The notes below the pieces were generated by a model, which saw only the letters and a program-made list of their open reading frames with translations, was not told where the DNA came from and did no database searches. From a virus, in IMG/VR virus record IMGVR_UViG_3300038809_000021, positions 7,782-71,781 of that record: a stretch of DNA of 64,000 nt; one strand, written 5' to 3'. Both the position numbers and the translations under genes were made by a program. Positions 6,568-33,108 of the stretch are shown piece by piece (positions within the stretch are counted from its first letter, which is position 1; each line of letters opens with the position of its first letter).

Positions 6568-7838
6568 TGAAAGTCACCTCAGCCAACCCATCCAGCCTAC
6601 GTCCCCTGGTCTCCAAGATCGGTCTGCACCCAAAGCAGGCCGAAGTGTTCCTGGACACAGCCCGATTCCGAGTCGTAGTTGCCGGCCGACGCTGGGGTAA
6701 GACTGCGCTCGCCAAAACGGAAATGATCCAGCGAGCCAAGATTCCTGGACAGAAGATTTGGTACATCGCCCCGACCTATCGGATGGCGAAGCAGATCATG
6801 TGGAACGACCTCAAGGCTTCGATTCCCCGCAAGTGGATTGCGCGGGAACACGAGACCGAAATGTCGATCACCCTGAAAAACGGATCCATCATCGAGTGCA
6901 AAGGCGCAGACAACCCGGATACGCTCCGGGGTGTGGGTCTGAACTTCGTGGTGATGGACGAATTCCAGGACATCCGCAGCGACACCTGGACCACGATCAT
7001 TCGACCTACCCTGGCGAAAGACCGCGGCGAAGCACTGTTCATTGGTACCCCGAAAGCCTACAACCAGCTCTACGAGGTGTATCAGTTCGGCCAAGACGAG
7101 GCTCGCAAAGCCTGGTCCAGCTATCAGTTCCCAACGATCACGTCGCCGTTCATTCCCGAGTCCGAGATTATCGAAGCTCGCCGAGACATGGACCCGCGCA
7201 CGTTCCGTCAGGAATTCGAGGCGTCGTTCGAAACCATGTCGGGCCGGGTTTACTATCCGTTCGACCGAAACGTTCACACCAGCCCGGACATCAAGTTCAA
7301 TCCGCAGCGCCCAATCTGGGTAGGGGTGGACTTCAACATCGACCCAATGTCCGCGGCGATCATTCAGCCTCAGACCAATGGGGAAATCTGGGTGGTCGAC
7401 GAAATCTTCCTGCACAACTCGAACACCGAGGAACTGTGCGAAGAGCTGGAGAAGCGTTACTGGCGTCACATGAGCAACATCACCATCTTCCCCGACCCGG
7501 CCGGTGCTGCACGTCAACACGCCCGCGGTGAATCTGACCTTGAGATTTTCAGGCAGAAGGGGTTCCGTCGAATCAAGTTCCGTCGCAAGCACCCGCCTAT
7601 TGCAGACCGGGTGAACAGCGTGAACCGAATGCTGAAAGACGCGGCCGGCTTCACACGCATGAAAGTGAACAGCGGTTGCACGAACGTGATCGAGTCGCTG
7701 GAGCAGACGCTCTACAAGGCGGGGTCGCGTGACATCGACAAAGGGCAGCGTATGGAACACATCACGGACGCCCTGGGTTATGCGGTGGAACTGGAGTTCC
7801 CGATCAAGAAAATCATCATCGCCGGTCATTCACTATAA
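6567..7838 (+). CDS. terL: Terminase large subunit
   Basis: Walker A AGRRWGKT, Walker B FVVMDE, IGTP coupling motif, RNase H-like GVDF ... DP ... HITDAL. Confidence 0.95.
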   Translation: MKVTSANPSSLRPLVSKIGLHPKQAEVFLDTARFRVVVAGRRWGKTALAKTEMIQRAKIPGQKIWYIAPTYRMAKQIMWNDLKASIPRKWIAREHETEMSITLKNGSIIECKGADNPDTLRGVGLNFVVMDEFQDIRSDTWTTIIRPTLAKDRGEALFIGTPKAYNQLYEVYQFGQDEARKAWSSYQFPTITSPFIPESEIIEARRDMDPRTFRQEFEASFETMSGRVYYPFDRNVHTSPDIKFNPQRPIWVGVDFNIDPMSAAIIQPQTNGEIWVVDEIFLHNSNTEELCEELEKRYWRHMSNITIFPDPAGAARQHARGESDLEIFRQKGFRRIKFRRKHPPIADRVNSVNRMLKDAAGFTRMKVNSGCTNVIESLEQTLYKAGSRDIDKGQRMEHITDALGYAVELEFPIKKIIIAGHSL

Positions 7839-21280: not shown

Positions 21281-21658
21281 ATGGATACCACTGGAGTTGT
21301 TGGGACGCCCTTCAAGTACGGTGGCCGAAGCCTCGCAGATGGGGCTCTCGACTGCTACGGGGTTGTGCGTGTGATGTCTGAGCGAGCAGGGAAGCAGCTT
21401 CCCGAGCGCAGCGTAAGTGAAGATCACAGACTGATTCATGCGATGATGGCGGGTCAGATGAATACCTGGAAGAAGCTCGACCGACCTGTACCGGGTTGCG
21501 TCGTGCTTTTTCGCATCAAGAAGATGCCCTGTCACATCGGCTACATGCTGGACGAGTTCGAGTTTATCCACGCCTGGGAGGGTTCCAATGGGGCCGTCGT
21601 TGAGCAGCTAAGCACCTGGGAAAAGAGAATTGAGGGCTTCTATGAATACGTTGGTTGA
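21281..21658 (+). CDS. NlpC/P60 tail-associated peptidase (lambda gpK-like)
   Basis: GTPFKYGGR ... LDCYG ... HIG ... FIHA catalytic pattern. Confidence 0.9.
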   Translation: MDTTGVVGTPFKYGGRSLADGALDCYGVVRVMSERAGKQLPERSVSEDHRLIHAMMAGQMNTWKKLDRPVPGCVVLFRIKKMPCHIGYMLDEFEFIHAWEGSNGAVVEQLSTWEKRIEGFYEYVG

Positions 21659-24600
21659 GACTGAGGTTGCAAAGCCACAAGTCCTCTTTATCTACATCGA
21701 AAACCCGATGCAGCCGGCAGAGTCGCGTGTTCTGGTAAGCCAGGACTATGACGCTGCGCGCACGCTCTCCGATTGCCTGGGTCCGCTCGAAGGCGACTGG
21801 GCAGTTTCTGTCTCTGGTCTGGTGATCCCTCGTGATCAGTGGCCAGAAGTTTTCCTGCGCGAGAACGACTGCATCGTGGTTGCCCCGCTGATTCTGGGCG
21901 GTGGTCAAGGCGGTGGCGGTAAGCAGATCATGCGACTGGTGGCCCTGGCCGCCCTGACCTACTTCACAGCAGGTGCTGCGGCCGGTGTTGCAGGTGCAAT
22001 CGGTGTGACCTCTGCCGGTGGTATCGCTCTGGTGGGCGCGGGCATGATCATGGCCGGTACGATGGCGATCAACGCCCTCTTGCCGCCTGCACAGCCGAAA
22101 GTCCCAACCAGCGGCAACGACTACGACTCCAGCCCAACCTACGGCATCGACGGCCCGAAGAACATGAGTACCCGGAGCATCCCGGTACCGGTGATCTACG
22201 GTGAGTGCTGGTTCGCGGGCAACTTCATCCAGTCCTACATCGACAACGTGGGCGACGACCAGTATCTGAACCTGCTGATCAACGTCGGTGAAGGGCCAAT
22301 CGAAGGCATTCAGGAAATCCAAGTCAACGATCAGCCGATGAACAACTTCGTCGGCGTCGAGACCTGGTTCCGTGACGGCTCCGAAAACCAGCAGATGATC
22401 CCGTACTTCGACGACATCATTGTGCCGGTCAACCGCAGTGTGAACCTGACCAACGCTGTGTACACCGTTCACACTGTAGAGTCGCCGGTCGATCGCCTGC
22501 GCCTGGACTTCGTGCTGCCAGCCGGTTTCAACCACCTGGACGACGAAGACGGCATGGTTGCGACAACCGTGCAATGGACTGCTGAGATTCGTGAAGTCGG
22601 TACCGGCGCATGGCAGCCGTTCACCGGTGGCGATCGTGTGCTGACTGTCAGCGGTAAGCAGATGTCGGCCGCACGCCGCAGCTATTACAGCCAGACCCTG
22701 GATCGGAACAAGCGCTACGAGATTCGCTGCATCCACAACCAGGCGACTGACGACAGCAACACCAGCAACAAGGTGACGCTCTCGGACGTCAACTACATCA
22801 CCTTCGACGACATGACCTACAAGCACACCGCGCTGCTGGGCATGCGTATCAAGCTGTCCGATCAACTGAACGGTCTGCCAACGGTCAAGTATCGCGTCAA
22901 GGGTCGCAAGGTTCCGGTCTACAACGTGCTGACCGGCAACTACGTCGAGACCTGGACCGATAACCCGGCCTGGATCACCCTCGACGTTCTGATGAACAAG
23001 CGCTACGGCGGCCAGTTGTCTGCCAACCGCATGAAGATGGACTACTTCCGCAAGTGGGCGACCTTCTGCACTCAGAACAACCTCAAGTTCAACGGCGCCA
23101 TCGACCAGCGCACCAACTTGTGGGACGCCTGCGCACCAATCTGCAAAGTGGGCCGGGCGCAGCTCGTTCGCTCGGGTACCAAGTTCCAGGTGTCGCTTGT
23201 TCGCAAGACCACACCGGTTCAGTTGTTCTCGATGGCCAGCGTCAAGAAGGGTTCGCTCTCCATCGACTGGATGGCCAGCGACGAGCGCGCCAACGAAGTG
23301 CATGTGAGCTACTTCGACAAGGGCGACCAGGGCAAACAGAAGACCGTCATCGTCGCCAACGAAGCAGCACGCGAGCGCGGTGAAGAAGCCCGGCCGACCG
23401 AAGTGACTCTGTACGGTGTGGACAACATCGATCAGGCCACTCGTGAAGGCACGCTGGCCATGAACATGCAGCAGCTCTTGCAGACCATCAGCTTCGAAGC
23501 ACCAGTCGAAGCGATTGCCTGCACCCTGGGCGATGTCATTGCGATCCAGCACGACATGCCTGACTGGGGTCAAGGCGGCTTCACAGAAGTGGGCAGCACG
23601 AAGACCAAGCTTGTCATTGATCACCCTGTCTCCATGCCTCTGGGCGGCAGCTACGTGGTGCAGGTTCGCCACGACAGTCTGTTGCAGGGCACCTGGGAAG
23701 CAGAAGCGGTCGTGGGCAACATCGTCGTGCCGACTGGCCCGTTCAACGTCCAGATGTTTGATCGGTACCGTCGTCTCGTGACACCTGGCACCGGCAAGGA
23801 CTACGAAATCGAAGAGCCTGTGATTGACCAGTTCGGTCGTCACGGTCTGCGGTTGTCTTCGACTGCCGGTATCAAAGTGGGCGACACGATTCAGTTGTGG
23901 GACACCAACGTCATTGAGACGCGCAACGTCGCAGCCTTTGACGGGGAGACTATGACGATCACCCCGACTGTCCCATTCAGCGCTGTCCCGCGTGCAGAGA
24001 GCCCGTGGGCATTCGGTCTGTATGAGTCTGTCACCCAAATGCTGACTGTGATGAACATCAGCGGCAAGGATGACATGTGGAAGCAGATCAGCGGCATCGA
24101 GTACAAGGACGACGCCTACGATGACACGGTGATCGACTACCGCCCTGACCCAACCAACACCAGCCCTGACATGCCGGTGGTGAACTTCAACGGGTTCAAG
24201 GAACGTCGCTACCTGATCGGCGCCAGCTACACGTCCGACATCGAAATGACCTGGGCTTCCGCGGACATCAATTACAGCTACTGCGAAGTCCACATCAAGA
24301 TCGACGACGAGTCCTGGAAGTTCATGGACGCGAACGCCACCTTGTACACCCTGATCAACATCAGCTCGGGCAAGATTCAGCTCAAGCTGGTACCGGTGAC
24401 CATCGAAGGCTTCAAACCGAACTTTGGATCCGTGCCGACCTACACCTACGAAATCGTGGGTGGGGTTCCTCGTGTCCCACCAGTGCCGCTCAACTTCCGC
24501 CCAGGCGTGATCACCGGCGACATCATCGAGCTGCTGTGGGGCGACCTGGATGCCTGGTCTGCCGCGCAGAACGTCTACAAGTACGAGGTGTTTCACGCCG

Positions 24601-25565
24601 GGTACAAGGACGCCCGCATCGAAGATGCTCAACTGATCGCAGTGACCGGGAACAACCACTACCCGCACATCGGTCTTGAGCGCCTGAGCTGGCACACATA
24701 CTGGTTGCGTGCGACAAACACCCAGGCCAAGGACAGCAAGTCGCAGTTCGCCGGCCCGTTGAGCTTGCAGGTGATCGACAACGACCCATACGGTCTGGTC
24801 GACCTCACCAACATCGCCAACGACCTGCGCGAAGCAATCGACTATCCGAAGATTCTCGACGACCTGTCGGTGATCGTGGCCAACGCTACGACCAAGCTGG
24901 AAGAAGCGACCGACGAACAGAAGCAGGAAGTGTTCAACCGTGAGCAGGCGGTCGGTGATGTCCGGGCCTACGTGAACGAGACAGTCGGTGCAATCGCAGA
25001 CGAGAACGAAGCCCAGGCAATCCGCCTGACTACCCTCGAAGCGACCACCAACGCCGCGACACAGGCCAAGATCGACGAGCTGACCCAAGTGGTCGTGAAC
25101 GGCGACAGCAGCCTCGCGCAGCGTATCTCGCTGATGCAGGTGAAGTTCGCTGACGACCTCGCTGCCGGCTTGCTGGTAGAGCAGACAGCTCGTGCTGACG
25201 CAATCAGCGCCATCGCATCGCAAGTGACCACGCTGAACAGCACGGTCGGTGAGAACAACGCCAGCCTGCAACAGACCATGAAAGTGGTTGACGGCATCAG
25301 CGCCCAGTACACGCTGCGGGTGGACATCAACGGCATCGTCTCGGGCTTCGGTCTGGCAACGGGCGCCGGTGGTACTTCTGAGTTTGCGATCATGGCAACC
25401 CGGTTCAAGATTTACGGACCAGGCCCAGGCGGTACCGTCGTGAAGACTCCAGTCTTCTCGGTGAACACTGAAACCGGTGTTGCGTACCTGCGAAACGCGG
25501 TGGTTGGTGACTTGTCGAGCGACAACTACATTTCTGGTGTGTCGGGGTGGTGCCTAAAAAAGTAG
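21642..25565 (+). CDS. Central tail fibre / host specificity protein J (gpI-J fusion), short form 1307 aa
   Basis: Ubiquitin-like gpI N-terminus, PVPVIYGE, FN3-like region, coiled coil and DUF1983-like C-terminus (YTLRVDINGIVSGFGL); stops abruptly at GWCLKK. Confidence 0.92.
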   Translation: MNTLVETEVAKPQVLFIYIENPMQPAESRVLVSQDYDAARTLSDCLGPLEGDWAVSVSGLVIPRDQWPEVFLRENDCIVVAPLILGGGQGGGGKQIMRLVALAALTYFTAGAAAGVAGAIGVTSAGGIALVGAGMIMAGTMAINALLPPAQPKVPTSGNDYDSSPTYGIDGPKNMSTRSIPVPVIYGECWFAGNFIQSYIDNVGDDQYLNLLINVGEGPIEGIQEIQVNDQPMNNFVGVETWFRDGSENQQMIPYFDDIIVPVNRSVNLTNAVYTVHTVESPVDRLRLDFVLPAGFNHLDDEDGMVATTVQWTAEIREVGTGAWQPFTGGDRVLTVSGKQMSAARRSYYSQTLDRNKRYEIRCIHNQATDDSNTSNKVTLSDVNYITFDDMTYKHTALLGMRIKLSDQLNGLPTVKYRVKGRKVPVYNVLTGNYVETWTDNPAWITLDVLMNKRYGGQLSANRMKMDYFRKWATFCTQNNLKFNGAIDQRTNLWDACAPICKVGRAQLVRSGTKFQVSLVRKTTPVQLFSMASVKKGSLSIDWMASDERANEVHVSYFDKGDQGKQKTVIVANEAARERGEEARPTEVTLYGVDNIDQATREGTLAMNMQQLLQTISFEAPVEAIACTLGDVIAIQHDMPDWGQGGFTEVGSTKTKLVIDHPVSMPLGGSYVVQVRHDSLLQGTWEAEAVVGNIVVPTGPFNVQMFDRYRRLVTPGTGKDYEIEEPVIDQFGRHGLRLSSTAGIKVGDTIQLWDTNVIETRNVAAFDGETMTITPTVPFSAVPRAESPWAFGLYESVTQMLTVMNISGKDDMWKQISGIEYKDDAYDDTVIDYRPDPTNTSPDMPVVNFNGFKERRYLIGASYTSDIEMTWASADINYSYCEVHIKIDDESWKFMDANATLYTLINISSGKIQLKLVPVTIEGFKPNFGSVPTYTYEIVGGVPRVPPVPLNFRPGVITGDIIELLWGDLDAWSAAQNVYKYEVFHAGYKDARIEDAQLIAVTGNNHYPHIGLERLSWHTYWLRATNTQAKDSKSQFAGPLSLQVIDNDPYGLVDLTNIANDLREAIDYPKILDDLSVIVANATTKLEEATDEQKQEVFNREQAVGDVRAYVNETVGAIADENEAQAIRLTTLEATTNAATQAKIDELTQVVVNGDSSLAQRISLMQVKFADDLAAGLLVEQTARADAISAIASQVTTLNSTVGENNASLQQTMKVVDGISAQYTLRVDINGIVSGFGLATGAGGTSEFAIMATRFKIYGPGPGGTVVKTPVFSVNTETGVAYLRNAVVGDLSSDNYISGVSGWCLKK

Positions 25566-25600
25566 GGTCCATCACCCTGGAATATGACCCGGGTGATGGG
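25556..25600 (+). promoter_or_regulatory. Putative programmed -1 frameshift signal: A AAA AAG plus downstream stem-loop
   Basis: Heptamer 25556-25562 in frame just before TAG; 9-bp stem CCATCACCC (25569-25577) / GGGTGATGG (25591-25599); the -1 frame is open to 26173. Confidence 0.75.
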
Positions 25601-26173
25601 AACCTGATTTCTGAGGCTTTCGATGCAGAGTTCCACAACGCTCTGATCACCGGAGACATCAGCGCCCTGGAGGGAACATTCCAGGGCAGGCTGGACGTGA
25701 ACGCAATCGACGCAGTGAGCCGGCTGAACATCGCCGGCCGGGCAGTAGCAGTGACCCAGGTGTTTGAGTCGGCCGGGATCGTGGGTCAGACAGAGGGCTT
25801 CAACGATGATGGCGTCTATCGAACCTTGATGGCCATCGTCATCGAAGTCCCCTACGGGAATGGGAGTGGTTGCTGGGCTGACGTGATGATGCAGTACCAT
25901 GTGGTCGACTATAAGGGCGACGAGAACGCCGGTTTCCCTTGTCAGTACCGCATCTTGCTGGATGGTGTGCCCTACTTCACGAGCATCGCGGTGCCGTTTG
26001 GTAGCTTCTTCAACCGAAGCTGGGATCCAAACTTCATCCACCACATGCTGCTGTACCTCAGTGCCGGTCAGAACCATACCGTCGCGATTCAGTTCAGGTG
26101 GTTTGACCGAGACACAAACGTGTATCCTCGGTTCAGCGACCGGCGAATCCGAGTAGACATCATCAGGAAGTGA
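25562..26173 (+). CDS. J C-terminal tip module 1 (frameshift extension; fusion ~1510 aa)
   Basis: DAEFHNALITGDISALEGTFQGRLDVNAIDAVSRLNIAGRAV is the segment that normally follows the DUF1983-like region of J proteins. Confidence 0.75.
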   Translation, partial: VGSITLEYDPGDGNLISEAFDAEFHNALITGDISALEGTFQGRLDVNAIDAVSRLNIAGRAVAVTQVFESAGIVGQTEGFNDDGVYRTLMAIVIEVPYGNGSGCWADVMMQYHVVDYKGDENAGFPCQYRILLDGVPYFTSIAVPFGSFFNRSWDPNFIHHMLLYLSAGQNHTVAIQFRWFDRDTNVYPRFSDRRIRVDIIRK

Positions 26174-26174
26174 C

Positions 26175-26711
26175 ATGGCATTTGACACAACGAAAAACTA
26201 TGCCGAGTTCGGGAACGCCTTCTTTCGAGGGCGTTTGAAGGGCGCCACTGGCACAGCAAGATTCAAGCTCACAGCAGGGTCGGTGAATGCGGTCGATACG
26301 ATCAACATCGCCGGCAAGGCCGTGACCTATGACTGGCTGATTCAGTTTGGTGCGGCATCAGGGAGCGCAGGAGCTGTTCTCTATCAGACCGTGATCGACG
26401 TGATCGACGACGGCGTGTACATCGAATTCCTGGTCTACTGCGACACCAGAACCATTCTGCTGGACGGATCGTATCAGCCACTTGGCTACAACCGAAGCTT
26501 CTGGATCGACGGGGTGATGCAGCCGAACTATGTTGGCCACGATCCTGGGTTCAAGATTTGCCCGTACAACGCAGTTGTCCCGCTCGCCCGCGGTCAGCAC
26601 GTTCTGCAAATTCGAGCCAACCAGCGAAGCAACGGTCAACTGCCGTCCCCAAACTCGACAGACGCCTACATCTTCTGCCGATACATTCGACGCACAGGGA
26701 GCGACATCTGA
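26175..26711 (+). CDS. Stand-alone J-tip-like module 2
   Basis: YAEFGNAFFRGRLKGATGT ... VNAVDTINIAGKAV, paralogous to module 1. Confidence 0.75.
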   Translation: MAFDTTKNYAEFGNAFFRGRLKGATGTARFKLTAGSVNAVDTINIAGKAVTYDWLIQFGAASGSAGAVLYQTVIDVIDDGVYIEFLVYCDTRTILLDGSYQPLGYNRSFWIDGVMQPNYVGHDPGFKICPYNAVVPLARGQHVLQIRANQRSNGQLPSPNSTDAYIFCRYIRRTGSDI

Positions 26712-27286
26712 TGGCTGGTGAAGCCGAAGCGCAATTCAACACCAACTGCTGGATTCGAGGACGCATGGTCGGGATGACCGGCACCTTCTCGGGCACCTTC
26801 AAAGCGGAAGAGGTGGACATCATCCAGTACGCCAACATCCGCAATGGCGCGGTGTCGTCGTATTCGCAGTTCAGCCGCAAGAAGTTCCCAGGCGAAACAG
26901 CGATCCAAGACATGACCTGGGTGGTCGCACCGGTACCCAATGCGCCAGAGGGGACTCTCGTGGCGTTCACCATCCCAGTGAGCGTTCGAATCCAGGGTAC
27001 CGGCGCGATCATTCGGTTTCGACCGCCAAGGGTCACGCTGTGGCGAAATGGCGTGGTCATTCATGACGAAGTGTGGCGACTGCCCCTGAGCTATGACAGC
27101 CTGTTCTTTGCCCTGCGCTATATCGACCTCGACGTTTCACGGACAGAGCCGGTGACGTACCGAATCCTCATGCAGAACGGGGAGTGCGATAAGCGCTATC
27201 AGAACTCAGGCTCGGAGTTCTACACCGTGGACAGCCACAAGATTTCTAGCAAGGGCAAGGTGCTTACTAGCATCCGTAAAAAGTGA
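26711..27286 (+). CDS. Stand-alone J-tip-like module 3
   Basis: TGATG coupling; EAQFNTNCWIRGRMVGMTGTFSGTFKAEEVDIIQYANIRNGAV, paralogous to modules 1 and 2. Confidence 0.75.
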   Translation: MAGEAEAQFNTNCWIRGRMVGMTGTFSGTFKAEEVDIIQYANIRNGAVSSYSQFSRKKFPGETAIQDMTWVVAPVPNAPEGTLVAFTIPVSVRIQGTGAIIRFRPPRVTLWRNGVVIHDEVWRLPLSYDSLFFALRYIDLDVSRTEPVTYRILMQNGECDKRYQNSGSEFYTVDSHKISSKGKVLTSIRKK

Positions 27287-27326
27287 TGTGTAAGATAAAT
27301 CCATCTTCATTCAACCGAGAACTCAC

Positions 27327-27755
27327 ATGGTAAAGGGAACGATCTACAAAAAGTCTAATGGCCAGGTTGTCATGACCTGCCAGGGTCCAGACGAAAAGAA
27401 CGTCGAGCTGCAATGTATTCTGGATCCAGATTACGCCGCATACGTCGGCGAAGAGATTGACGGTGATAAGTTCTACTTCAAGGACGGCAAACCTGTTCCT
27501 CGCACCCCGCTGCCGATCACGATTGAGCCGCGCCGCCCTGACTCCGTTGAAAGCGAAATGAAACTGGGCAAGGGCGAGCTGCTGCGCGTGACCGGTATCC
27601 CAGATGGCACCCGTCTGATCGCACCCGGTCAGATCGACTTCATCGTGGACGACGGCTTCTTTGAATGGGAGACCGACATTCAGGGCACCTACAACTTCAC
27701 CCTCTACAAAGACCAGTCGTACACAGGAGTGACATTCAATGCCATCGTTGGGTAA
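27327..27755 (+). CDS. Putative tail fibre assembly protein
   Basis: 142 aa, IYKKSNGQVV ... FYFKDGKPVPR pattern; position after tip modules. Confidence 0.55.
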   Translation: MVKGTIYKKSNGQVVMTCQGPDEKNVELQCILDPDYAAYVGEEIDGDKFYFKDGKPVPRTPLPITIEPRRPDSVESEMKLGKGELLRVTGIPDGTRLIAPGQIDFIVDDGFFEWETDIQGTYNFTLYKDQSYTGVTFNAIVG

Positions 27756-28116
27756 GCACGACGCGCTGGCCTGGCGTGAGATTCGAGAAATCGACGACAT
27801 CGAAATCGCCAGGAAGGTGCATGAGTACCGGGTCGATACCAGCAAGGGCGTGTTGCAGTTCGACCCAACCAGCAAAGACCGTATGTACATGATCTTGCAG
27901 ACGATTAATGGCGGCGGGACCGTAGACTGGCAGATGGCCGATAACTCGACTGTGACGCTCGACTATGAATCGATGTCAGCCCTGATCGCTGAGGCTGAGT
28001 CTCTGGTCGGCCCTAAGCTAATCAGAGCGCACGACTACGCACAAACGCTCAAGACCCGCTTCAAGATCGGCGGACGCGTCACACAGCGCGAGGTCTCTGC
28101 CGAGAACTGGGTCTAG
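27739..28116 (+). CDS. DUF4376-like tail fibre chaperone
   Basis: LQFDPTSKDRM ... VDWQMADNSTVTLD motif. Confidence 0.7.
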   Translation: MPSLGKHDALAWREIREIDDIEIARKVHEYRVDTSKGVLQFDPTSKDRMYMILQTINGGGTVDWQMADNSTVTLDYESMSALIAEAESLVGPKLIRAHDYAQTLKTRFKIGGRVTQREVSAENWV

Positions 28117-28162: not shown

Positions 28163-30238
28163 ATGGCGTGGTATACCGAAGGGACGATCAGTCTCGTTCA
28201 GAATTCGAAGGTCGCTACCGGCACCGGGACCAAGTTCCTGGCCAACACTCGCTATGGCGACATCCTGTTTGTCAACGGCGAAGTCTACGAAATCATGGGC
28301 GCAGTCAATGACTTGCAGCTCAATCTGGTCAAGCAGTACACCGGCCCGACACAGCTCGAACAGCCGTACTCGCTGATCCGCAACATGACCAACGCCAGCA
28401 ACTATGACCTGATGCGGGCCATCGACGAAATGCTAGGCGAGCGCAACACGCAGCTCAACCAGTTCACAGTCTGGTCCAGCGGTACCGTCAATGGCGGCCC
28501 AGAAGGCGACGGTCGGTACCCTCTGACCAACCGCTTCGGTGTGACGCAGCTCGTGTACTGCCCGGCCAAGATGGCGCAGTTGTCCGGTACCCAAAATCAA
28601 ATCGACCTGACCCAGATTCAAACCGACATCACCAATATCCAGGACCTGCTCTCTGACTACGGCACTCTTGAGGCCAAGCTCAATGCTCTGGTGGGCGTGG
28701 ACCTGGCCAAGCTGGGCGGTCAGCCGAAGAACGCGAAGCTCACTCAGATCAGCGCCATTGAAATGAAGCTGAACCAGGTGCTGGTTGCCAGCGGTGAAGA
28801 GACCTTCACTGTGATGGACATCAGTGACCGGGGCAAAGCTCTGATCGCTGCACAGACAGCGGCTGAAATGCGCTCTGTGATGGGCGTAGCAACGGGCGGG
28901 ACCGGTTCGGGTAACTCGGGTAGCGGTGGTGTACCAGGACGTCGTGTAGCGATTCTGGGGACGTCTCTGTGCCAGTTGTGCAACTACGGTACCGCGACCG
29001 AAATCTCGATGACCAACCGTTCCTGGATTGGCTGGGCCGCAGTGCTGACCAACAACAAGATCATGACGCCAGTCTGGTATGACCGCGGTCTGTACCCAGG
29101 CTGGGAAGTGTCCGATCACGTTGGCGATCCACGAGGCTTCCGCGGACTGAACGCCGGTGTATCGAGTGACCACGCCGACAACATCTTCGACCGGGCCAGC
29201 TACCTGGTGGCGAACGTGGACTGCGAGTTCGTGGTCATGGACAGCGGCATCAACGACATCGGTGACAACAGCCTGACCAGCGATGCGATCAGCGCCCTTC
29301 GTGAGAAGACGGTCGACTACCTGCTCGCCAATGGGAAGACGGTGATCATGCTGACGCTGCTGAGCCCGGCTGCCACGTATTACCCAATCGGTTCGACACA
29401 GCGCCGCAAGATGGAGCGTGTGAACAACCGTGCCCGCGAGTTCGCCTTGCAGCGGAAGAACATGTACCTGTTCGACTGGACCGAGTACATGATGGACTTC
29501 AACGATCCGAACGGTCAGCCAAAGCCGCTGCACTCGGTCGACGGTCTCCACTTTGCGCCCCGCGGTGCCTTCGCTGTAGGTAAAGGTCTGGCCAAGCTGT
29601 TCAGCACCTTCTTGCCGGACGCACCGCGTGTAGTCTGGTCGCCAGAGGACATCTACGACTCGGTGTTGGCGCCCCAGGGCAACCTGATGACCAACAGCTT
29701 CTGCTACGGGCAGAGCGGTACGCTCGATGCCGGGGCAACGGGCAACGTCGCAAACGGTATGCGTGGCGGGATCAACAGCGGTGACGGCAGCGCGTTCTAC
29801 GAGAAGCTGGCCCGCGCAGACGGTCGTGGTCAGTGGCAGCAGATCACGATCACACCTGGCACCACCGATACGCAAGCGCTGTTCCGTGTGACGGACATCA
29901 CCCACGGTCTTCCAGAAGGAACCTGGGTCCAAGGTAGCGTCGAGCTGGAATGTGACGCCTGGGAATACTGGGCTGGCATCAACCTGCAAATGCGTGACCT
30001 CGCGGCCGGCGGCCTGACTTCGCACGCACTGAAATCCTACTCAGGGTTCCCGATGCCGGCCGAAGCCTGGTCTGGTACCATCATGACCCCAGCTTTTCAG
30101 GTGAAAGCTGGCGGACAATTGCGGTGGCGCTTCGAAGCGACCGCCCTGGGTAACGCAGTCGGCAAAGGCGTTGTACGAGTGGGCGCTGTTGGTCTTCGCG
30201 TAACAATCGATCCGAAAATCATCGTCAACGCGAGGTAA
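28163..30238 (+). CDS. Tail spike/fibre 1 with SGNH/GDSL esterase domain
   Basis: Virion-anchor N-terminus MAWYTEGTISL...; SGNH blocks ILGTSL, NAGVSSD, DSGIND, DGLHF. Confidence 0.8.
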   Translation: MAWYTEGTISLVQNSKVATGTGTKFLANTRYGDILFVNGEVYEIMGAVNDLQLNLVKQYTGPTQLEQPYSLIRNMTNASNYDLMRAIDEMLGERNTQLNQFTVWSSGTVNGGPEGDGRYPLTNRFGVTQLVYCPAKMAQLSGTQNQIDLTQIQTDITNIQDLLSDYGTLEAKLNALVGVDLAKLGGQPKNAKLTQISAIEMKLNQVLVASGEETFTVMDISDRGKALIAAQTAAEMRSVMGVATGGTGSGNSGSGGVPGRRVAILGTSLCQLCNYGTATEISMTNRSWIGWAAVLTNNKIMTPVWYDRGLYPGWEVSDHVGDPRGFRGLNAGVSSDHADNIFDRASYLVANVDCEFVVMDSGINDIGDNSLTSDAISALREKTVDYLLANGKTVIMLTLLSPAATYYPIGSTQRRKMERVNNRAREFALQRKNMYLFDWTEYMMDFNDPNGQPKPLHSVDGLHFAPRGAFAVGKGLAKLFSTFLPDAPRVVWSPEDIYDSVLAPQGNLMTNSFCYGQSGTLDAGATGNVANGMRGGINSGDGSAFYEKLARADGRGQWQQITITPGTTDTQALFRVTDITHGLPEGTWVQGSVELECDAWEYWAGINLQMRDLAAGGLTSHALKSYSGFPMPAEAWSGTIMTPAFQVKAGGQLRWRFEATALGNAVGKGVVRVGAVGLRVTIDPKIIVNAR

Positions 30239-30240
30239 GC

Positions 30241-33108
30241 ATGGCCTGGTATAACGCAGGAACAATCGCAGTCGTTGCGGGCAGCAAGAAAGTGACAGGG
30301 ACTGACACCAAGTTCCTGAGCAACGTCAACCGCGGCGGCATCCTGGTGATCGGCACTGAGCTGTGGATCATCAATGACGTGAAGAGCGACTTTGAGCTGG
30401 AGCTGCGCGAGGCGTACACCGGCGCGACTGCTTCGGGTATGACCTACGAAATCATCCTGGACTGGGTAAACCCCGATCCAGATGGCCTCGCACGCCGCAT
30501 CGACGACTTCTTGACCGATCGCCAGCGCACGATGGATGAATTCGTCCGCTGGGTGAACGGCAAGTACAACGACGGCCCAGCGAAAGACGGCAAGTACCCG
30601 CTCACAGACCGCTACGGCGTCGTCACGCTCGTGAAGAGCCCGGAGCGGATGCAGTACGAGGCTGGAGGCGGAACGGGCGGTGGTGGAGGCGGTGCAGACC
30701 TTGCTGGCGCCGGTATCATTCTGGCCAGCGACTTCGGAGTGCTGGGCGGCGGTACCATCGACGAAACCGACAACATCAACGCAGCGCTGGTGGCCGCACA
30801 GAACGCGGGCGGTGGCGAAGTCATCGTGCGCAGCAAGAACGGCACCGACAAAATCTACATCAACGGCCTGATCGCCATTGAGTCGAACAACACCAAGCTG
30901 ACCTTCGTGAGCGACATCAACTACGGCAGCCAGGGCTGGATGCGTATCAGCGGTGGGCTGGCCGAGATTCGCCGCCCAGGTCAGATCGAACTGCTCAAGC
31001 TACGCCTGCCCAGCTACGCGAATGCAGACGGCTACATGGTCTTGCCAATGCGTGAGGGCAACGGTGGGTTCCTGAAAGTAGGCGATCGGATCACCATTCG
31101 TGGTGAGAACGACAAGAACGGCCGAGTCATCGACAAGCAGATCACCATCGTGACAGCGATCAATGGTGACGACGCCATCTGTTCTGACGAGCCGGACTAC
31201 ACGTTCCAGCCTGTGTACCCTGACTCCGAGTTTGAGGACGACCACACTACCGGTACCACAATCTCGATCAGCGTCTACTCGGCAATGACCGCTGACTGCA
31301 AGAACACCGACGTGATTCCTGTGGTCGACAGCACCGGCTTCTTCGCCGGCGACCTCGTGTACATCAGCGACAGCCGTACCGAGAAAGACATGATGGCGCC
31401 GGTCGTGACGAACCTGCTGTCTGCCGCGAACATGGAAATCATGCGTATCGCCGCAGTCGAGGGCAACAACCTGCGCATGGAGCGAGCGATTCGTCGTGAG
31501 TATCTGACTGTCTGGGCGGGCGGTGTCGTGAAGATGGACGCCGTTCAGAACAGTCACATCAAGCTGCGCAACGTCTACTGGACTGGTGTTCAGCCAAATC
31601 GTAAAGCACACGGCATGGCCATCAACTACGGCGCCAACTGCACCACGAAGGTCGACAACATGTACGGTCGTGGCGGCCGGAAGGGTATCGGTATCCGCAT
31701 CGCCTACAGCTACGACTGCCACGCCATCGAGTCGAAGGTCTATGACGCCTACAGCTTCGCATCGGCTGAGGGGTACGGGATTTCCCTGTATTACTCGACC
31801 CTGTGTTCTGTGCGCAACTGTCACGCCGCCGGCAACCGTCACAACATCCTGTTGCAGACCGTGACAAGCTGCGACGTGTTCGACAACGTGTCCAATGACG
31901 ACTACATCAGCGGGATCGACTTGCACGGCGCCGGGTCTGTGGATTGCCGGGTCATGCGTAACCGTCTCTCTCGTTCCAAGTCCTACGCTGACGGTGTAAC
32001 CAACGGCGGCGCGATTCGTAACGGCAACACTGCGCACACCATCGGCGACCACAACACGCTGATCGCGGACAACTACATCGAAGGCTATCTGGACACCAAG
32101 TGCGCAGCCATCGACGTGTCGCCGTCTTCGAACGGTGTGATCGTGCGGAACAACGACATCGTGGATTGCCAGGTCGGCTTCCGTCACTATCGGATCGGCA
32201 GCTCGATCAGCCCGAGCCAGTTCAGCGACCGTGTAATCCTCGACGGCAACACCTACACCCGCGTTGCCCAGATTTATGACGTGGACAACTACGCCAACTC
32301 GTTCATCAACGAGCTGGTGTGCATCAACGAAAAGTCGGTCGACAACATCCAGCACTTCGTGATCAAGAAAATCCCGAAAGTCCTGATGATGAACTGCAAG
32401 ATCATCGCACCACGCATCACCCCAGGCGCCCACGCATTCGACATCACCGGTGTGGCCAACCTGAAAATGTACGACAACTATGCCGGTGAAGCTGCACGAG
32501 GCATTCGAGTCACGAGCTGCGCGGTTGCAAAACTCGTTCGCAACATGCTGGGCGATACCAACGAGAACATCGGCGTGGTCGATGGCGGGGGTAACGGTCA
32601 ACTGATCAACCTCCAGAACACCGATGAAGTCGTGGGCGGTGGTTCGGGTGGCGGTGGTACCGCTGTGAAGTGTCAGCGTGTTCTGGGTACTCTGCCGGCC
32701 GACACCAACAGCACCGAGACTGTATCGCTGAACAACAGCACGCCGGTGATCACCGCTGGTCTGACTGCGATGCAAGCGAGCCTGCCGGTGACAGTGGGTA
32801 GCTTCGTTGAAGTGACCGCAGTCATCCCGTATGTGAGCATGGGCGGGTCTTCGGGCGCGTGTGTCGCGCATTTGTGGGCAGACGGGGTTCGTATCGCGAC
32901 AGCAGTGAAACGTCTCACAGCGAGCGGTGGGGGTGTCAACAGCGGGGGTGAAGACTTCGTGCTGATCGGCAGCGTCACTGCGAGCGAGCCGATTCTGGAC
33001 CTGGTTTTGAAAATCGGCGCCTCTGATGCCGCGAACAACGTGATGCTGAACAACAAGCTGAACGGCAGCACGCAGCCATACATGATCATCAAGGAATATC
33101 AGAACTGA
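30241..33108 (+). CDS. Tail spike 2 with right-handed beta-helix (pectate-lyase-like) depolymerase domain
   Basis: N-terminus MAWYNAGTIAV... paralogous to spike 1; DFGVLGGGTIDETDNINAAL spike neck; Asn/Ile/Cys beta-helix repeats (VRNCHAAGNRHNILL, IDLHG). Confidence 0.8.
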   Translation: MAWYNAGTIAVVAGSKKVTGTDTKFLSNVNRGGILVIGTELWIINDVKSDFELELREAYTGATASGMTYEIILDWVNPDPDGLARRIDDFLTDRQRTMDEFVRWVNGKYNDGPAKDGKYPLTDRYGVVTLVKSPERMQYEAGGGTGGGGGGADLAGAGIILASDFGVLGGGTIDETDNINAALVAAQNAGGGEVIVRSKNGTDKIYINGLIAIESNNTKLTFVSDINYGSQGWMRISGGLAEIRRPGQIELLKLRLPSYANADGYMVLPMREGNGGFLKVGDRITIRGENDKNGRVIDKQITIVTAINGDDAICSDEPDYTFQPVYPDSEFEDDHTTGTTISISVYSAMTADCKNTDVIPVVDSTGFFAGDLVYISDSRTEKDMMAPVVTNLLSAANMEIMRIAAVEGNNLRMERAIRREYLTVWAGGVVKMDAVQNSHIKLRNVYWTGVQPNRKAHGMAINYGANCTTKVDNMYGRGGRKGIGIRIAYSYDCHAIESKVYDAYSFASAEGYGISLYYSTLCSVRNCHAAGNRHNILLQTVTSCDVFDNVSNDDYISGIDLHGAGSVDCRVMRNRLSRSKSYADGVTNGGAIRNGNTAHTIGDHNTLIADNYIEGYLDTKCAAIDVSPSSNGVIVRNNDIVDCQVGFRHYRIGSSISPSQFSDRVILDGNTYTRVAQIYDVDNYANSFINELVCINEKSVDNIQHFVIKKIPKVLMMNCKIIAPRITPGAHAFDITGVANLKMYDNYAGEAARGIRVTSCAVAKLVRNMLGDTNENIGVVDGGGNGQLINLQNTDEVVGGGSGGGGTAVKCQRVLGTLPADTNSTETVSLNNSTPVITAGLTAMQASLPVTVGSFVEVTAVIPYVSMGGSSGACVAHLWADGVRIATAVKRLTASGGGVNSGGEDFVLIGSVTASEPILDLVLKIGASDAANNVMLNNKLNGSTQPYMIIKEYQN

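Follow-up and report, generated by a model that had tools for sequence, protein, structure and literature searches.

The window analysed here, a stretch of 64,000 nucleotides (positions 7,782 to 71,781 of IMG/VR record IMGVR_UViG_3300038809_000021), comes from a Nickievirus-like phage of Pseudomonas syringae. At the locus of interest, the gene for a J-type central tail fibre is followed closely by three related modules, M1, M2, and M3 (Table 1). The longest ORF of J opens with a TTG at 21630, and the ATG at 21642 is the start annotated in phage hairong. The product matches PHROG 31, "central tail fiber J" (1e-171, profile positions 69-1269 of 1565), and the Pfam families FNIII-A_GpJ (2.5e-17), Phage-tail_3, and Phage_Tail_Tip.

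Table 1. Features of the J locus, in coordinates of the window.
Feature	Position	Strand	Description
J, zero-frame product (J-short)	21642..25565	+	Central tail fibre / tip attachment protein
Slippery heptamer A_AAA_AAG, -1	25556..25562	+	dnaX-type, read from the sequence
Stimulatory hairpin (predicted)	25569..25599	+	6 nt past the heptamer; 9-bp core CCAUCACCC/GGGUGAUGG plus inner pairs
Module 1 (M1)	25562..26173	+	-1-frame C-terminal extension of J, 203 aa
M1 neck segment	25625-25762		Between linker hairpin and jelly-roll domain
Module 2 (M2)	26175..26711	+	Free paralogue, 178 aa
M2 neck segment	26202-26336
Module 3 (M3)	26711..27286	+	Free paralogue, 191 aa
M3 neck segment	26729-26863

The zero-frame product, J-short, ends with ...GVSGWCLKK*, and translation that moves to the -1 frame would yield J-long (J plus M1), of approximately 1514 aa from the TTG or 1510 aa from the ATG. 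The start codon of M2 lies 1 nt past the stop of M1 and is preceded by the Shine–Dalgarno (SD) sequence AGGAAG; that of M3 overlaps the M2 stop (TGATG), with AGGGAG ahead of it. Both free modules begin just 6-9 residues ahead of their necks and possess no anchor domain. In five Nickievirus records, the annotated J terminates at the slip site, and the extension and both free modules carry the label "hypothetical protein."

The end of J reads C.CUA.AAA.AAG.UAG (CUA.AAA.AAG.UAG being 25554-25565), which places an X_XXY_YYZ heptamer in the zero frame with the TAG stop (25563-25565) directly after it. The heptamer is identical in the five Nickievirus genomes and in all of the divergent lineages examined. 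Homologues down to 23% identity start with ..KKV, that is, AAA AAA GUN, and the peptide after KKV is conserved across lineages. The 151 nt folded around the predicted hairpin give -59.9 kcal/mol (z=-3.4), and a hairpin is predicted at the slip site in every lineage (z -2.1 to -6.0), with the strongest stem in some lineages lying nearer to or farther from the heptamer than 5-9 nt. The stems of L080/L267, L217/L252, L242, and L254 are unrelated in sequence, and the hairpins of L217 and L252 differ by one mismatch-to-pair change.

Independent initiation of M1 is disfavoured because three lineages (L010, L012, and L013) have no ATG, GTG, or TTG in the -1 frame upstream of the heptamer; their sole in-frame starts lie 60-66 nt downstream of it, and the peptide ahead of those starts is still conserved. 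In the other lineages, the only candidate upstream starts are NTG codons forced by Gly-Trp codons. Fibre homologues with an in-frame tip have ...GWKLDKAGNAEF... in an unbroken frame that leads to the same neck and C-terminal domain, and the stop of J-short falls within the GWxLxK motif of these homologues. We do not claim the SD-like sequence GGGGUGG upstream of the slip site as a stimulator, since the other lineages do not conserve it. The -1 frameshift in J, first proposed in the first-pass annotation, is almost certainly real, judging from the heptamer, the 6-nt spacer, and the hairpin retained across lineages. The trans-frame tryptic peptide of J-long is predicted to begin VGSITLEYDPGDG; no report of a trans-frame J protein was found in the Nickievirus literature searched.

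The three modules have a 45-aa neck segment in common, and pairwise BLASTP detects the shared N-terminal segment in every combination (M1/M2, E=4e-9, 29% identity over 129 aa; M1/M3, 2e-5; M2/M3, 2e-4). Profile comparison among the modules, using 13-lineage alignments, gives 98-99% probability over 149-172 columns (hhalign of M2 against the M1 family, 99% over 162 columns), and the homology therefore extends beyond the N-terminus to nearly the full length. The first-pass annotation had also pointed to similar basic C-terminal strands, and these are present: M1 ends in IIRK and M3 in SIRKK, while YIRR lies six residues from the end of M2. In-frame fibre homologues close with the same ..KR/RK ending. 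The positions and peptides that it gave for the modules were likewise correct. Charge complementarity between the necks, with Asp of M1 opposed to Arg of M2 and M3, does not persist across lineages and was set aside.

None of the modules has a match in Pfam at E<=0.1, including PF12421 (Ig_GpJ_C), or in PHROGs, and tblastn of each against cultured phages gave no matches outside Nickievirus. A word-based search returned no longer relatives of M1 fused in frame; an exhaustive phmmer search with M1 found mostly stand-alone ORF calls of about 200 aa starting with ..KKV, plus a few long fibres. The N-terminal parts of the in-frame homologues align to J, and the module lies at their C-terminus, the position that M1 would occupy on the J-type hub/fibre protein through the frameshift; M2 and M3 are free-standing.

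AF2 monomer models cover M1 and M3 (mean pLDDT 78 for each), with a predicted beta-sandwich at residues 62-203 of M1 and a jelly roll at residues 48-190 of M3. The best Foldseek match of both models is the receptor-binding domain of lambda gpJ (8xcj_F; E=3.9e-6 for M1 and 3.6e-6 for M3), followed by TNF/C1q-like domains, classes that are largely trimeric. By VIA, M3 aligns with gpJ residues 992-1125 (Z 8.2, rmsd 3.8, 127 residues aligned), a score that other jelly rolls equal or better. M1 scores Z 9.5-7.6 against TNF/C1q-like trimeric jelly rolls (Pgp3 C-terminal domain 9.5, PLTL lectin 9.4, BclA 8.8, EDA 8.2, and C1q head 7.7), and M3 scores 8.1 with Pgp3 and 6.9 with TNF-alpha. Both models superpose on the TNF/C1q-like jelly-roll beta-sandwich with moderate Z values; even 8-9.5 counts as only moderate for so common a fold. 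The nearest ESM Atlas clusters of M2 carry PF12421 Ig_GpJ_C (score 0.93). The neck is modelled with low confidence in M1 and M3, as expected for a segment that would depend on oligomerization. Alignments and models together support true paralogy of the three modules and a predicted jelly-roll fold like that of the gpJ receptor-binding domain.

The genomic context of relatives was taken from scans of IMG/VR, metagenomes, and GTDB, using a pattern conditioned on the A_AAA_AAG slip site, so that variants with other layouts could be missed. Every slip-site locus with enough downstream DNA holds exactly three modules, in at least 12 lineages (the 5 Nickieviruses, L005, L006, L008, L009, L010, L012, L013, L080/L267, L217, and L254), which include Oceanospirillales-type hosts. 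Approximately 45 contigs with in-frame tips, in contrast, have a single module and zero free copies. The survey that the first-pass annotation had called for thus agreed with the prediction: a slip-site J with enough downstream DNA is accompanied by exactly two free modules, and an in-frame fibre by none.

M1, M2, and M3 are three old clades, each monophyletic (support 99/97, 100/99, and 99/94, respectively) and congruent in their inner branching; in all complete loci, they keep a fixed order and are inherited together, with none lost or swapped. Purifying selection acts on each of them, with dN/dS in close pairs of 0.07-0.15 (M1 0.07, M2 0.10, and M3 0.09), and evolution in the middle regions of M2 and M3 is at least as rapid as in M1. 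The stop/start junctions between modules overlap or are 1-4 nt apart in nearly all lineages examined, with a gap of about 10 nt between M2 and M3 of L008. Repeats in the module region are 14-20 nt at most, including a 20-nt stretch common to M1 and M2, and no long repeats or inversion sites were found there.

Given the frameshift, the paralogy, the fold, and the one-plus-two survey, the best explanation, in our view, is a heterotrimeric tip of M1, M2, and M3 that a single frameshifted J chain tethers, and we somewhat favour its being correct. Most ribosomes on J would terminate at 25565 and produce J-short, while some would slip -1 at A_AAA_AAG, aided by the hairpin, and produce J-long, whose 203 extra residues would comprise a linker, the neck, and a gpJ-type jelly-roll receptor-binding domain. 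M2 and M3 would be free units of neck plus jelly roll with no other means of attachment. The three unlike necks could then zip into the final layers of the trimeric fibre prism, and the three jelly rolls could pack together as a single pseudo-threefold head, in the manner of the C1q A, B, and C chains.

J-long would be the sole covalent link between head and J trimer, with one J-long and two J-short chains per tip and the ratio of the two forms set by frameshift efficiency. Ribosomes that have frameshifted may reinitiate at the conserved stop/start overlaps from M1 to M2 to M3, which would make the three modules roughly equimolar; since M2 and M3 carry SD sequences of their own, however, equimolar synthesis is not guaranteed. 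What comparison shows is the frameshift signal, the paralogy, the predicted class of fold, the one-plus-two layout and its age, and purifying selection; a physical heterotrimer, a 1:2 chain ratio, and a stoichiometry based on coupling are inferences. On the stricter form of the proposal, an obligate heterotrimer in which each J trimer receives exactly one tethering chain through the frameshift and the coupling keeps the other two subunits equal, our judgement is evenly divided. We know of no J-type fibre in which one extended and two truncated chains share a trimer. The asymmetric head would suit a receptor that is monomeric or otherwise not threefold. A tip of three specificities, as the first-pass annotation envisaged, found no support, and one composite asymmetric binding face is just as likely.

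The same frameshift could serve three alternative homotrimeric tips, with M1 displayed on (J-long)3 and with (J-short)3 capped non-covalently by homotrimers of either M2 or M3, so that a burst would be a mixture of virions differing in specificity. Such an arrangement would account for both forms of J, it agrees with the in-frame relatives, whose chains each bear one module and presumably form homotrimers, and it fits modules that all have the receptor-binding-domain fold with fast-evolving middles. We nevertheless think it unlikely: M2 and M3 have no docking domain apart from the neck, which would leave a free homotrimer without anything to keep it on J-short. Nor does it require exactly two free modules per lineage, which is what is found, and the tight coupling from M1 to M3 is a better fit to equimolar subunits. 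Slightly less likely again is an origin of M2 and M3 as duplicated tips that have become assembly factors; they would template or chaperone an M1 homotrimer on J-long and then leave or remain as accessories, much like Tfa and gp38 with side fibres. Their place directly downstream of the fibre gene is the usual one for a fibre chaperone, and they are conserved under purifying selection. Their lack of any Pfam or PHROG match, however, includes a lack of any to a tail fibre assembly family, and profile comparison makes them homologues of the tip itself; we know of no fibre chaperone that is a paralogue of the tip it folds, and count this against the idea. The rate at which their variable, tip-like middles evolve, at least that of M1, is also typical of receptor contact rather than of a chaperone.

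As an alternative, the first-pass annotation had offered a reservoir for swapping tips by recombination; spare cassettes would then take the place of M1. Recombination between tandem paralogues whose 5' ends are conserved is conceivable in principle, but each position keeps its own orthologue in all lineages, shared DNA does not exceed 14-20 nt, no inversion sites are present, and M2 and M3 are maintained with good SD sequences, ATG starts, and dN/dS of about 0.1. With three old, congruent clades that show no swapping, and with no long repeats in the region, we reject both cassette recombination and inversion, and regard the reservoir as very improbable. Hardly credible at all is an artefact, whether a homopolymer sequencing error or a decaying J with chance ORFs downstream. 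The break does fall in a run of six A, yet the same site recurs in 5 independently sequenced phages and in many metagenomic and genomic contigs, the hairpins are conserved, and all parts are under purifying selection.

The J-type central fibres are a model for receptor recognition and for the triggering of DNA ejection in siphophages, and they are assumed to be homotrimers. A heterotrimeric tip, if confirmed, would give threefold tail fibres a novel means of offering one asymmetric binding face to the receptor; it would also give recoding a new role, that of setting subunit stoichiometry within one oligomer, and make a clear example of a single oligomer whose composition a frameshift controls. 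Prediction or engineering of host range would then have to weigh three genes, not one, in phages that include biocontrol candidates against Pseudomonas syringae. We recommend that the J frameshift and the modules be annotated as tail tip components. The literature searches returned no description of a J-gene frameshift or a heterotrimeric central fibre for this system, nor any virion proteomics or structure for these phages, which points to the three-piece arrangement being undescribed.

The slip site has the same heptamer and the same hairpin spacing as dnaX, where -1 frameshifting takes place at A_AAA_AAG with a hairpin 6 nt downstream, and, as with lambda G/GT, the frameshift would set the ratio of a short to a long tail protein. 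In contrast to both, the site in J lies at the very end of a fibre gene and adds a receptor-binding domain, and the product is neither an assembly chaperone nor a polymerase subunit. The C1q head likewise has its A, B, and C chains encoded by three paralogous genes in tandem, and their jelly rolls follow triple-stranded stalk segments; its resemblance to the M1 model (Z 7.6-7.7) is no more than an analogy, no sequence relationship is detectable, and all C1q chains are free-standing, whereas here one module would be fused to a 1300-aa hub protein by recoding. T5 pb5 and the gp38-type adhesins of T2 and S16 also put a non-threefold binding face on a threefold fibre. Each of these is one unrelated monomeric adhesin, whereas we propose three diverged copies of the fibre's own tip.

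Three adjacent genes are reported to build one heterotrimeric fibre-like unit in the tail proteins of virophage DSLV2 (PMC12724248) and in gp35/36/37 of mycobacteriophage Mysterious (PMC13252515, preprint). These are gp37-like fibres or baseplate accessory proteins with folds other than those of M1-M3; no frameshift link to a hub protein is reported for them, and they do not replace a central fibre tip. A further comparison is lambda gpJ (PDB 8XCJ/8XCK; PMC11101478), which has the same layout of hub, FNIII, and fibre as J, provides the best Foldseek match of the M1 and M3 models through its receptor-binding domain, and carries its tip below a trimeric beta-prism, as we infer for the present fibre. 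In lambda, the three receptor-binding domains are identical, are encoded in frame, and bind the LamB trimer (PMC11101478), and PF12421 does not detect the modules described here. In the proposed arrangement, by contrast, two chains would stop before the neck, one would be extended by frameshifting, and two receptor-binding-domain paralogues would be supplied by separate genes.

The region falls within the tail module of a siphophage of Pseudomonas syringae that resembles Nickievirus: over 21630-27400, nucleotide comparison with relatives gave 87% identity across 92% of the interval for hairong, and matches of ~76-77% for Nickie, phiK7B1, ZY21, and Nican01. All four annotated relatives examined have the same layout, in which J, the central tail fibre gene, is followed by a short overlapping ORF and two further ORFs, all annotated as hypothetical. 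Here these correspond to M1, the extension of J in the -1 frame, and to the free ORFs M2 and M3. The N-terminal part of J (residues ~75-204; 21630-22250) matches PHROG 32, the gpI-like "tail assembly protein" (E=1.8e-12), and the stretch from the K-like gene (21281-21658) to J shows no I gene of its own; in these phages I and J therefore look like a single fused gene.

Coordinates of the tip locus and neighbouring tail genes
Feature	Coordinates	Details
J, central tail fibre/tip attachment protein	21630-25565	1311-aa ORF; Pfam FNIII-A_GpJ, Phage-tail_3, Phage_Tail_Tip; PHROG 31 at 1e-171
Slippery heptamer A_AAA_AAG	25556-25562	directly 5' of J stop
M1	25562-26173	-1-frame extension of J
Hairpin	25569-25599	starts six nucleotides past heptamer
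M2	26175-26711	free ORF
M3	26711-27286	free ORF
Two small overlapping ORFs	27327-27755; 27739-28116	directly after M3; kept in all Nickieviruses
Two large tail proteins	28163-30238; 30241-33108	tail-fibre PHROGs 1980, 2712 over first ~70-105 residues of both

The two large tail proteins look like paired tail spikes, one with an SGNH/GDSL esterase domain (PHROG 6102, 1.8e-84) and the other with a weak NosD-type beta-helix match. The second small ORF carries DUF4376 and matches tail-fibre PHROGs weakly; both small ORFs may help to assemble the tip or the spikes.

J ends in C.CUA.AAA.AAG.UAG, and the 151-nt context of heptamer and hairpin folds at -59.9 kcal/mol (z=-3.4). Five Nickievirus genomes share the same heptamer and the same sequence in each stem arm, even though adjacent wobble positions vary. 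M1 has 35 relatives in an exhaustive protein search. The best 16 and most others are ORF calls of ~200 aa; the great majority of those examined start with two or three arbitrary residues and then KKV, that is, AAA AAA GUN, so the heptamer is kept down to 23% identity. In the IMG/VR, metagenome, and GTDB genome contigs, the long fibre ORF always ends in TGG NNN NTA AAA AAG TA(G/A), and a stable hairpin follows closely on the heptamer in all lineages (z between -2.1 and -6.0). The stem sequences are unrelated in L080/L267, L217/L252, L242, and L254; the L217 and L252 stems differ by a mismatch-to-pair change, and the L013 stem has a U-A pair at the position of A-U in the window. Three lineages (L010, L012, and L013) lack any start codon in the -1 frame upstream of the heptamer, and the peptide encoded directly after it is nevertheless conserved; in the others, the sole candidate starts are NTG codons forced by conserved Gly-Trp codons. 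As far as sequence analysis goes, a -1 programmed frameshift at the end of J is established, with J-short as the zero-frame product and J-long as J plus M1.

The first-pass annotation had proposed that M1, M2, and M3 are paralogous tip modules with a common N-terminal segment. The peptides it quoted lie in the window where it placed them, and the segment aligns pairwise by BLASTP (E 4e-9, 2e-5, and 2e-4). Profile-profile comparison of 13-lineage alignments gave 98-99% probability across 149-172 columns, so that homology reaches almost from end to end of the module and takes in the DG/NG turn and the closing basic strand; M2 matches the M1 family at 99%. Sequences within a family are almost unchanged over their first ~50 residues and vary in the middle; their last strand is conserved. 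AlphaFold2 with natural alignments models M1 (residues 62-203) and M3 (48-190) as jelly-roll beta-sandwiches (mean pLDDT 78 each), and the top Foldseek match of both is the lambda gpJ C-terminal fibre/receptor-binding domain (8xcj_F, E about 4e-6). VIA-align Z values are moderate, and the jelly roll is a common fold: M1 scores 9.5 with Pgp3, 9.4 with PLTL, 8.8 with BclA, and 7.7 with the C1q head, all TNF/C1q-like trimeric jelly rolls, and M3 scores 8.2 with gpJ residues 992-1125. The neck, the 45-aa segment ahead of this domain, is modelled with low confidence in M1 and M3, as expected of a part needing partner chains. The ESM Atlas clusters nearest M2 carry PF12421 Ig_GpJ_C. Clusters near protein P0002 include many stand-alone 157-228-aa Pseudomonadota proteins with this domain, which may be gene fragments or more free J-tip modules of other phage groups.

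Searched with an HMM of the neck, about 45 further IMG/VR contigs have it in frame, 100-170 residues from the C-terminal end of fibre proteins that are 450-2065 aa long, several of them homologous to J across hub regions; no free modules lie near these genes. Aligned to J-long, the in-frame fibres read continuously (...S.GW.L.K.G.AEF...GTF.G.LTA.AVNAV.TINI.GNAVT..., ending ..KR), and J-short terminates within the GWxLxK motif, just ahead of the neck. The ordinary state is thus one module per chain, presumably giving three identical modules per fibre. The neck looks like the specialised final unit of a fibre repeat, since its first half recurs 19 times in the metagenomic protein P0023 (1495 aa) and weaker copies, offset by about 11 residues, precede it in many in-frame fibres.

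Whether a frameshifted J always co-occurs with two free modules had been raised as a check, and the survey bore this out: all slip-site loci that lie in a fibre context and extend far enough downstream carry exactly three modules (the frameshift extension and two free ORFs), each opening with the neck. These loci are the five Nickieviruses, L005, L006, L008, L009, L010, L012, L013, L080/L267 (inside a 703-kb contig of a Parendozoicomonas genome), L217 (an Oceanospirillales MAG), and L254 (a Cellvibrionaceae MAG). Two more matches, in Endozoicomonas and Kistimonas, are truncated by contig ends, and other pattern matches had no fibre context and were set aside as chance. The scan is conditioned on this slip site, so other layouts may exist elsewhere.

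The maximum-likelihood tree gathers M1, M2, and M3 into one group each, with strong support (99/97, 100/99, and 99/94) and a matching branching order inside the groups; the in-frame tips are placed next to M1. The triplication is therefore old, with no exchange between the three positions since. Each module has a dN/dS of 0.07-0.15 in close pairs, the modules have only 14-20 nt of DNA in common, and there are no inversion sites in the module region. This rules out the first-pass alternative of a spare-cassette reservoir for recombination, as well as pseudogenes and artefact. Synonymous divergence from hairong climbs along the locus (J 0.56, M1 0.71, M2 1.24, M3 2.17), and the megablast match stops near 26922, inside M3, a hint that a recombination boundary lies within or close to this module. 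A 17-nt inverted repeat within M3 (26922-26938/26995-27011; 88% complementary, 56 nt apart) sits near the end of this similarity.

In M2 and M3, a mere 6-9 residues precede the neck, and there is no domain besides neck and head; these themselves are the only plausible route into the virion. The simplest reading, which we hold to be somewhat better than even, is that M1:M2:M3 form a heterotrimer seated on three J chains, one long and two short, given the typically trimeric fold class, the fixed count of three, the one tethered module, and the two truncated J chains. Alternative homotrimeric caps are unlikely, and a chaperone role for the free modules is slightly less likely still. Almost every lineage examined has M1/M2 and M2/M3 stop/start junctions that overlap or are separated by 1-4 nt (the L008 M2/M3 gap is about 10 nt), which makes reinitiation possible. 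Frameshifted ribosomes might thus supply similar amounts of the three modules, which we infer at most, since M2 and M3 each have their own SD. Speculatively, an asymmetric head might suit a monomeric receptor.

The literature searched held no description of a J-gene frameshift or a split central-fibre tip, and the Nickievirus papers mention neither. The parts are of known kinds: a J fibre, a gpJ-like receptor-binding domain, and a dnaX-type frameshift. The lambda receptor-binding domain is a trimer suspended beneath a trimeric beta-prism (PMC11101478). Three adjacent genes are reported to encode a heterotrimer in a virophage tail (PMC12724248) and in a mycobacteriophage baseplate accessory (PMC13252515), and C1q offers a close architectural analogy to the proposed three-module tip.
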